From Roseomonas mucosa (GTDB lineage: Bacteria; Pseudomonadota; Alphaproteobacteria; Acetobacterales; Acetobacteraceae): 64,000 nt of DNA. The position numbers and the translations under genes were made by a program. Within the stretch, counting starts at the first letter, position 1. Each line of letters opens with the position of its first letter. This document shows positions 15,808-51,077 of this stretch, piece after piece. Location of the stretch: contig CAMDWG010000010.1 in assembly GCA_945878375.1 (NCBI GenBank), positions 22,646 to 86,645 on the forward strand, written 5' to 3'. The notes under the pieces are model-generated. The model was not told the DNA's origin. It was given only the letters and a program-made list of their open reading frames with translations, and did not search any database.

Positions 15808-15990
15808 TCAATGCATGCGACGCTGCGCCGGCGGTGTGCCGGGGACCAGGGCTGCCGCCAGGGCGACATGGGCGGCGGCGGCTTCCGCGCCCAGCCGACG
15901 GCATTCCGCTTCGACATAGGCCAGCATCAGCAGCAGCGCCGCATCGTCGTCCGGCTTGGGGGGGGCGGTCATCTCGGTATCGGCGCGCAT
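15808..15990 (-). CDS. Small hypothetical protein (~60 aa)
   Basis: Helical core LLLMLAYVEAECRRLGAEAAAAHVALAAAL; fills a gap without overlapping other genes. Confidence 0.5.
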   Translation of the reverse strand: MRADTEMTAPPKPDDDAALLLMLAYVEAECRRLGAEAAAAHVALAAALVPGTPPAQRRMH

Positions 15991-16140
15991 GACTATTCCA
16001 TTCCGTAAGGCGGGGCGCCGCAGGCGGCGCGAGGGCAGGACGCTTCGCATGCGGGTCACGTCGGCGTGAAGACGCAATCGCTCGGGTCGAGATTCAACCA
16101 GGAATTGGCTTCGCCCGATCAGGCTGCCGGGCGGCCGCCC

Positions 16141-16231
16141 AAAAGAAACCCCGGCGGGAAGGCCCGCCAGGGGAAAGTCGAGGGAGGAAACGTCCAGGAA
16201 CGTCCTCGGGGCGGCTTCCCACCCCGGGACG
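16141..16231 (-). ncRNA. Candidate trans-acting sRNA, MmgR/alpha-r8(suhB)-like, ~90 nt
   Basis: 5' hairpin GTCC-CGGGGTGG/CCGCCCCG-A-GGAC, core TTTCCTCCCT (16181-16190), terminator CCCC-T-GGCGGG/CCCGCC-GGGG + TTTCTTTT; no minus-strand CDS upstream to explain the terminator. Confidence 0.75.
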
Positions 16232-16237
16232 ATCACA

Positions 16238-16279
16238 AGACTAGGCGCGACCGCGCCGACCCGCCTTGATCCAGATCAA
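16238..16279 (-). promoter_or_regulatory. FNR/FixK-type class II promoter for the sRNA
   Basis: Perfect TTGAT-N4-ATCAA at 16266-16279; -10 TAGTCT at 16243-16238 gives +1 at 16231 with the box centred at -41.5. Confidence 0.75.
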
Positions 16280-16401
16280 ACCGTTTTCGGCTCGGATCGG
16301 CAAAGCGTGTTTGCCCTTCCGCGCCGACCTTGCGAGGATGGGGCCAGGGGCGGCGCGGCATCCACGCGCGACCGTTTCGACCGAAACAGGGAAAGCGACA
16401 C

Positions 16402-17124
16402 ATGGCACGAGTGGCTCTCGTCACGGGCGGGCAGCGCGGCATCGGTGCCGCGATCAGCGAAGGGTTGCAGGCGGCGGGCCGCAAGGTTGTCGCCAGCTAT
16501 GCCGGCAACGACGCCGCCGCGCAGGCCTTCACGGAACGCACCGGCATCCCCTGCTACAAATTCGATGTCGGCGACTTCGACGCCTGCGTGGCGACGGTGG
16601 CGAAGATCGAGGCCGAGGTCGGCCCGATCGAGGTGCTGGTGAACAATGCCGGCATCACCCGCGACGCGATGATGCGGAAGCTGACGCGGCAGATGTGGGA
16701 CGACGTGATCGATACCAACCTCGGCAGCTGCTACAACATGTGCAAGGCGGTGTGGGACGGCATGAACGCCCGCAAGTTCGGCCGCATCGTGAATATCGGC
16801 AGCGTCAACGGCCAGGCCGGGCAGCTGGGCCAGGTGAACTACGCGGCGGCGAAGTCCGGCATCCACGGCTTCACCAAGGCGCTCGCCCAGGAAGGCGCGC
16901 GCAACCAGATCACGGTGAATGCGGTCGCGCCCGGCTATGTGGACACCGAGATGGTGCGCGCCGTGCCCGCCGATGTGCTGGAGAAGATCATCGCCCGCAT
17001 CCCGCGCGGCCGCCTCGGCACCGCGCAGGACATCGCGCGCGGCGTGGTGTTCCTCACGGCCGATGAGGCCGATTTCATCACCGGCTCCACGCTGTCGATC
17101 AATGGCGGCCAGCATATGTACTGA
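16402..17124 (+). CDS. phbB: Acetoacetyl-CoA reductase
   Basis: VALVTGGQRGIG, NNAGITRD, NGQAGQLGQVNYAAAKSG, INGGQHMY motifs. Confidence 0.93.
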   Translation: MARVALVTGGQRGIGAAISEGLQAAGRKVVASYAGNDAAAQAFTERTGIPCYKFDVGDFDACVATVAKIEAEVGPIEVLVNNAGITRDAMMRKLTRQMWDDVIDTNLGSCYNMCKAVWDGMNARKFGRIVNIGSVNGQAGQLGQVNYAAAKSGIHGFTKALAQEGARNQITVNAVAPGYVDTEMVRAVPADVLEKIIARIPRGRLGTAQDIARGVVFLTADEADFITGSTLSINGGQHMY

Positions 17125-50961: not shown

Positions 50962-51077
50962 CGTCCGGGCAAGATGCTTCTCGTCCAGGCGATGCCTCGA
51001 CGTTTTCTCCCGGCGGTTCCGTGCGATGATGTGCGGAGCCTACTTTCCCCGGTGCCTCGCGGCACCGGGGATTTTTT
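50962..51077 (+). ncRNA. Candidate sRNA paralogous to 16141-16231
   Basis: Shared core AGGN-N3-NCCT-SGACGTTTYCTCCC and ACTTTCCCC; terminator CCCCGGTGCC/GGCACCGGGG + ATTTTTT on the plus strand where flanking genes are minus. Confidence 0.7.

Follow-up and report, generated by a model that had tools for sequence, protein, structure and literature searches.

Introduction

MmgR of Sinorhizobium meliloti, a small RNA (sRNA) of the alphaR8 family (RF00519, 'suhB'), limits PHB accumulation (PMC9049629, PMC7143759). Its gene has NtrC as activator and AniA/PhaR as repressor, the latter acting through a TGC-N3-GCA site (PMC12542648, PMC7143759). In Caulobacter crescentus, the family is represented by the multi-copy siblings SisA-D, which share a 10-mer seed, have their own expression patterns, and are governed by growth and carbon conditions together with the CrfA sponge RNA; the canonical alphaR8 synteny is an adjoining N-formylglutamate amidohydrolase gene (PMC12559287). 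SuhB of Sphingopyxis granuli has a dedicated LysR-type activator (bioRxiv 10.64898/2025.12.09.693200). An FNR/FixK input is mentioned neither in the SisA-D paper (PMC12559287) nor in the SuhB paper (bioRxiv 10.64898/2025.12.09.693200), and our literature search found no paper linking the mmgR/alphaR8 family to FNR/FixK.

Regulators of the FNR type have been connected with PHB in other bacteria. A site for the Fnr-like regulator CydR lies upstream of phbB in Azotobacter vinelandii (PMC9049629), and further links in the literature concern Fnr and phaC in Herbaspirillum and FixK2-PhaR in Bradyrhizobium. Since such links exist in these three genera, an oxygen-PHB connection is biologically reasonable. 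When oxygen is limiting, PHB classically serves as an electron sink, and FnrS of E. coli and PcrZ of Rhodobacter sphaeroides (FnrL/PrrA) are FNR-dependent base-pairing sRNAs that extend the anaerobic regulon.

Here we describe an sRNA gene beside phbB, preceded by an FNR/FixK-type palindrome (the box), in a window of 64 kb, which is the whole stretch of DNA analyzed. Like MmgR, the sRNA belongs to the same covariance-model family, carries an unpaired UUUCCUCCCU decamer and ends in an intrinsic terminator, and here it adjoins phbB. MmgR is 77 nt long, single copy in its genome and subject to NtrC and AniA/PhaR, whereas the sRNA described here is approximately 90 nt long, has an extended 5' hairpin, is one of about four paralogues, and carries an FNR-type box. 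It resembles SisA-D as one of several siblings with a 10-mer seed, but the inputs of SisA-D are carbon status and the CrfA sponge. With SuhB it would share a dedicated activator, which is of the LysR type there, while the site here is an FNR/FixK-type box. The resemblance to FnrS and PcrZ lies in the logic of an sRNA transcribed from an FNR-box promoter and is functional only, as the RNA families are unrelated and neither is matched by Rfam here. The Azotobacter CydR site likewise combines an FNR-type site in the phbB upstream region with an oxygen-PHB link, but in that gammaproteobacterium the site is credited with control of the phb genes themselves and no sRNA is involved, whereas the geometry here points to the divergent sRNA. 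A known sRNA family is thus seen here with a regulatory arrangement that is new for it, and the logic of FNR-dependent sRNAs, itself known, gains a further example; the kind of system is not new.

Results

The sRNA beside phbB is an alphaR8 paralogue

The features of the intergenic region are collected in Table 1. Rfam RF00519 matches positions 16134-16219 with 43.1 bits, above its gathering score of 41 (E = 1.2e-6), and a whole-genome search returned the same match; the Rfam search of the locus gave no match besides RF00519 and a sub-threshold P15. The consensus fold of 16 sequences consists of a 5' hairpin, an unpaired seed formed by the UUUCCUCCCU decamer, and the terminator. The 5' stem starts one base before the G of a conserved GTCC, with a U-G or C-G pair. 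Compensatory changes are seen in the inner 5' hairpin and in the terminator, while the outer four pairs are invariant and thus give no covariation support.

Table 1. Features of the phbB-sRNA intergenic region and its flanks (window positions)
Feature	Position	Strand	Basis
phbB, acetoacetyl-CoA reductase	16402..17124	+	TIGR01829, 335 bits (cut-off 302); Pfam adh_short
phbB own promoter: TTGCCC (16311-16316), 17 nt, GAGGAT (16334-16339)	16311..16339	+	alignment of 29 upstream regions
FNR/FixK-type palindrome TTGAT-CCAG-ATCAA = TTGATCCAGATCAA	16266..16279	.	centre 16272.5; exact match
GG flank (ATCAAGG), promoter-proximal, sRNA side of the box	16264..16265	-	15/16 orthologous loci
-10-like hexamer TAGTCT	16238..16243	-	exactly 22 nt downstream of the box
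Inferred transcription start of the sRNA	16230..16231	-	sequence conservation and 5' stem begin there
sRNA of approximately 90 nt, alphaR8/SuhB/MmgR family	16141..16231	-	RF00519 match and consensus fold
Anti-Shine-Dalgarno decamer UUUCCUCCCU (family seed)	16181..16190	-	invariant in 15/16 orthologues
Intrinsic terminator, 10-bp stem (9 G-C pairs), then T-rich tail	16141..16172	-	terminator search; compensatory and wobble stem changes

The genome contains four RF00519 matches. The sRNA beside phbB is therefore a paralogue, because another RF00519 copy in the genome scores best. Its neighbours are phbB, a 60-aa open reading frame (ORF) and metW, and the canonical N-formylglutamate amidohydrolase synteny is not found. 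The best-scoring paralogue (contig C5:206060-206134, plus strand, locus L030) lacks an FNR box and has a PhaR/AniA-like TGCACTGCA about 85 nt upstream, a motif that fits the TGC-N3-GCA sites of S. meliloti mmgR (PMC12542648). The FNR box is also absent at the paralogues on contigs C12 and C2 and at a related element at window positions 50962-51077. Together, these promoter sequences are such that the alphaR8 siblings appear to carry different inputs. Two further candidates were rejected: a PhaR/AniA site at the sRNA beside phbB, as the intergenic region holds no TGC-N3-GCA and the motif stands upstream of the C5 paralogue instead, and the phasin genes as predicted targets, as the seed meets their ribosome-binding sites (AAGGAG) with generic Shine-Dalgarno pairing only and no specific signal.

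Box, GG flank and -10-like hexamer keep a fixed geometry towards the sRNA

To compare the promoter among relatives, we took the phbB locus from each of the 29 genus genomes (Falsiroseomonas/Roseomonas, family Acetobacteraceae). A first set of RF00519 loci (L001-L030) was dropped, as it represented a different, higher-scoring paralogue with neither phbB nor the box.

A sequence-only reading of this DNA had described a perfect TTGAT-N4-ATCAA palindrome at 16266-16279, a TAGTCT at 16243-16238 on the minus strand, and a box centre at exactly -41.5 from a start at 16231. The palindrome is indeed an exact match; TTGATCCAGATCAA is the sole occurrence of TTGAT-N4-ATCAA in the window, and its half-sites are conserved in 16 genomes. 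The hexamer likewise reads as described, at an offset of 22 nt after the box, and the arithmetic (16272.5 - 16231 = 41.5) is correct given the assumed +1 at 16231. At that exact offset, TAnnnT is present in 11 of the 16 loci and nAnnnT in four more (15/16 in total).

Conservation was expressed as the mean frequency of the commonest base in the 16 loci anchored on the box. It rises from 0.52 in the 20 nt upstream of the box to 0.96 in the distal half-site, drops to 0.55 in the N4 core, and returns to 0.99 in the proximal half-site and 0.97 in the GG flank. The remaining 20 nt of the spacer score 0.55, the hexamer 0.69, the 7-nt discriminator 0.46, and the RNA itself, over its first 13 nt, 0.83. 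Box and sRNA keep a distance that is constant within +/-1 nt in all 16 genomes despite the diverged intervening sequence: taken between the box centre and the G of GTCC (G16230 here), where conservation of the RNA begins, it measures 42.5 nt in 14 genomes and 41.5 nt in two. At 16231, all 16 loci have a pyrimidine (C or T), which slightly favours a start at G16230 with the box at -42.5. By these alignments, the sRNA start is best placed at 16230-16231, and the box would therefore be centred at -42.5 or -41.5. A start at the first position of the Rfam model (16219) was rejected, since the box would then lie at -53.5 and the conserved 5' half of the hairpin would fall outside the RNA. A scan with the sigma-70 consensus found no full promoter, and the sRNA side has no independent -35 element.

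The GG flank faces the sRNA, and the phbB side of the box reads ATCAAAC; the same flank accompanies the boxes of ccoN (27/27 genus genomes), hemA and acs. Comparison with ccoN provides a calibration within the genus: in all 27 genomes with a ccoN match (L129-L155), the ccoN promoter consists of a perfect box, the GG flank and a T(C/T)(A/T)TCT hexamer exactly 22 nt on. As judged by alignment, the sRNA promoter has the same architecture as this archetypal class II target in the same organisms. The box, the GG flank and the 22-nt distance to a T-rich -10 are those of the genus's own ccoNOQP (fixNOQP) class II promoters, but the ccoN promoter drives a protein operon and has TCATCT or TTTTCT as its hexamer, whereas that of the sRNA is TAGTCT. 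The class II activator placement proposed by the earlier reading is thus supported by the invariant distance, the hexamer at 22 nt, the ccoN-like geometry and the co-occurrence of box and sRNA described below, and the box is probably the class II operator of the promoter of this alphaR8/MmgR-family sRNA.

Box and sRNA occur, and are lost, together

The sRNA and the box (allowing at most one mismatch) stand together upstream of phbB in 16 of the 29 genus genomes, and neither is found in 12, including one genome, G011, with a decayed remnant; the remaining locus (L070) has too little upstream sequence to be scored. Among these phbB loci, a box without the sRNA or an sRNA without the box was found in no genome. 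In G011 (locus L057), the sRNA is a pseudogene: a deletion of 8 nt has taken out its seed, and mutations have hit its terminator, its -10 and the distal half-site of the box, whereas phbB beside it is intact, as is the phbB promoter (TTGCCC-N17-AAGGAT). In gain, loss and decay, the box and the sRNA go together, and phbB keeps its own promoter without them. Joint deletion of the two is expected anyway, as they are only about 40 nt apart; decay by point mutation is a single case, and the losses are few and phylogenetically clustered. The poorly resolved phbB tree suggests a few, not many, independent losses, so the co-occurrence count does not amount to 29 independent trials.

Two observations were made alongside this comparison. 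Genome G019 (L071), a 99% complete assembly, has no ccoN match, no FNR-like regulator and neither sRNA nor box at phbB; this one species may have lost its low-oxygen module as a whole. A conserved block (GGTTGAA...GAGCGATTGCGTCTTCACGCCGACGTGA) occupies window positions 16040-16100 on the minus strand, between the sRNA terminator and the 60-aa ORF (15990..15808, minus strand), which has no Pfam match. The block containing GAGCGATTGCGTCTTCACGCCGACGTGA is kept in G011 despite the decayed sRNA there and may be the promoter or leader of this ORF.

The phbB side of the box

Analysis of the opposite direction agreed with the earlier reading, which had seen no TAnnnT at the equivalent -10 position towards phbB. 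The hexamer at this position is AAAGCG, no TAnnnT lies within +/-3 nt of it in 16/16 loci, and even nAnnnT at the 22-nt offset is found in 0/16. A class II promoter towards phbB was accordingly rejected, with no -10 at that spacing in any of the 16 genomes and with phbB having a promoter of its own. This promoter element, TTGC(C/G)C-N17-GAGGAT, which the earlier reading had not seen, is conserved across nearly all of the 29 genus genomes, both those that carry the box and the sRNA and those that lack them. That the box does not serve phbB can be said only of class II geometry.

The distance between the box centre and the phbB -35 is 37.5-39.5 nt in 15 of 16 genomes (38.5 nt here) and 46.5 nt in one, and the box centre lies at about -73.5 from the inferred phbB start. 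One box might thus work in both directions, as a class II site for the sRNA and as a class I-like site for phbB, so that low oxygen would raise both the PHB enzyme and the sRNA. The fairly constrained spacing would suit such an arrangement, as would the CydR site upstream of phbB with CydR control of PHB enzymes in Azotobacter vinelandii and the effect of Fnr on PHB in Herbaspirillum (PMC9049629). That spacing, however, takes three values plus the outlier of 46.5 nt, shows no strict helical phasing, and is looser than on the sRNA side; the phbB promoter is unchanged in genomes without the box; phbB is intact in G011, where the box has decayed; and the GG flank common to ccoN, hemA and acs faces the sRNA. 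We therefore regard a bidirectional box as a tentative and rather unlikely reading, and return to the box as an operator of the sRNA promoter.

A candidate regulator and its probable signal

Only two Crp/Fnr-family proteins are encoded in the genome, and a single gene is FNR/FixK-like (contig C28:22009-22746, minus strand; L073:1441-2181). Its product, here the C28 protein, is nearest to the FnrL/FixK models, with 61 bits far below the equivalog cut-off of 300, and its nearest solved structures are FixK2 and FNR. Orthologues are present in 28 of the 29 genus genomes. Each of its four cysteines (C15, C18, C106 and C114) is kept in at least 27 of these 28 orthologues, and the alignment pairs C106 with Cys122 of FNR. 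The recognition helix reads E-HA-NR instead of E-xx-SR, and the protein has C-X2-C only, without the canonical C-X2-C-X5-C. These features place it as an atypical FNR-like subtype for which oxygen sensing is plausible, and the C28 protein is likely the activator that binds the box.

Exact boxes also lie upstream of ccoN (TIGR00780, 763 bits) and, downstream of puhE, upstream of hemA (TIGR01821, 650 bits). The genes ccoN and hemA are hallmark targets of the oxygen-responsive FnrL regulon of Rhodobacter and the FixK regulons of rhizobia, and the boxes here point to a real regulon of the FNR type. Because the same type of box precedes ccoN (cbb3 oxidase) and hemA, oxygen limitation is the most likely signal on the available genome sequences. 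The box could instead be functional and bound by a Crp/Fnr protein that senses redox state, NO, carbon or a nucleotide rather than oxygen. The atypical cysteine spacing of the sole FNR-like protein and the N in place of S in its recognition helix leave room for this, as does the second Crp-like protein, which has a cNMP-binding domain and is encoded about 2 kb from another exact box. Against it stand the boxes at ccoN (27/27) and hemA, a hallmark of oxygen-responsive FnrL/FixK regulons, and the four cysteines, all conserved and one of them aligned with FNR Cys122, and we judge a signal other than oxygen to be quite improbable. Oxygen limitation is the signal assumed below.

Box-alphaR8 units beyond the genus

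To examine how far the arrangement extends, an exact-pattern scan of 185,579 species genomes was performed for the box with GTTTCCTCCCT 48-78 nt after it. The scan returned 40 loci. Ten come from the genus or close relatives, nine of them adjoining phbB. At eight further alphaproteobacterial loci (Rhodoblastus, a Ferrovibrionaceae MAG, and six MAGs assigned to Acetobacteraceae, Rhodospirillales or 'Proteobacteria'), RF00519 matches above its gathering threshold directly after the box, and a T-rich or TAnnnT hexamer again stands 22 nt after the box. Neither phbB nor any common neighbour was found at these eight units, whose neighbours include MFS, MeaB, FAA hydrolase, SBP_bac_5, SelR and PMT genes. 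Approximately 17 matches in unrelated phyla are without a following terminator and near the chance expectation; the two of these given an Rfam search, the Haloferula and Entotheonella loci, had no RF00519 match. By this comparison, a predicted FNR-type input to alphaR8 siblings recurs in several alphaproteobacterial lineages, and because box-RF00519 units recur without phbB in other lineages, the box travels with the sRNA.

These units also bear on whether the box serves mainly phbB, by activation or repression, with the sRNA transcribed independently. Its place within the phbB upstream region and the Azotobacter precedent speak for such a role, but box-alphaR8 units exist elsewhere without phbB, within the genus the sRNA accompanies the box in every case, a -10 at class II spacing is found on the phbB side in 0/16, and the absence of overlap with the phbB promoter makes repression by occlusion unlikely; we consider this reading very improbable. 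That the palindrome is a functionless chance occurrence has nothing in its favour beyond the shortness of the motif and is effectively refuted by half-sites that are kept in 16 genomes while the core varies, by the absence of TTGAT-N4-ATCAA from 100 dinucleotide-preserving shuffles of the window, and by a 40-fold excess of exact boxes across the genome (3.86 Mb, 70% GC, 51 contigs), with 5 observed against 0.115 expected from base composition.

Proposed mechanism and its meaning

In the mechanism that we propose, an FNR-like dimer, probably of the C28 protein, would bind positions 16266-16279 under oxygen limitation. The box stands where a -35 element would be expected, and the dimer, once bound, would bring RNA polymerase to the weak -10 TAGTCT. 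The sRNA of approximately 90 nt would then be transcribed leftwards from about 16231, and its unpaired UUUCCUCCCU seed would pair with target mRNAs at their ribosome-binding sites. The box and its statistical excess, the family of the RNA, the conserved geometry and the joint occurrence of box and sRNA are observed, whereas where transcription starts, which regulator acts, oxygen as the signal and any effect on PHB are inferred. Control of PHB and carbon storage by the sRNA beside phbB is suggested only by the precedent of the family and by the conserved position next to phbB.

The alphaR8 sRNAs are present in nearly all Alphaproteobacteria, and their known inputs are few (NtrC/AniA, a LysR-type activator, and carbon status with a sponge RNA). 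If the proposed mechanism is true, oxygen limitation is added as an alphaR8 input, and the locus shows how duplicated sRNAs with one seed obtain different promoters. A low-oxygen sRNA beside phbB would offer a sharp and cheaply testable case for post-transcriptional coupling of redox state and carbon storage, and the conserved geometry provides a clean natural set of class II promoters for the atypical FNR-like regulator of Acetobacteraceae. More speculatively, FNR/FixK-activated alphaR8 siblings might form a widespread, undescribed low-oxygen branch in Alphaproteobacteria, and in this genus one FNR dimer might feed both the sRNA (class II) and phbB (class I-like) as a feed-forward node, in which the PHB electron sink is opened under oxygen limitation and the sRNA caps it post-transcriptionally. 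We offer this combined picture as a conjecture that is doubtful as a whole.

Other FNR-type boxes in the genome

A box with one mismatch, TTGACGCGTATCAAGG, lies about 85 nt upstream of acs (acetate-CoA ligase) at contig C10:88253 (L038), approximately 1.6 kb past the end of the window, suggesting that acetate activation belongs to the same predicted regulon. Two exact boxes, at C11:62287 and C30:5401 (L032, L034), have no clear target: one separates a DUF465 gene from a 457-aa ORF that has no annotation, with the second Crp-like gene about 2 kb away, and the other is near a serine recombinase. The region C1:224-236 kb (L031, L035) contains a photosynthesis cluster, in which PpsR-like sites (TGT-N12-ACA) lie between the divergent genes crtF and bchC, and in which puhE (DUF3623) is followed by hemA behind its perfect FNR box. 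Judging from this gene content, the source organism is probably an aerobic anoxygenic phototroph.
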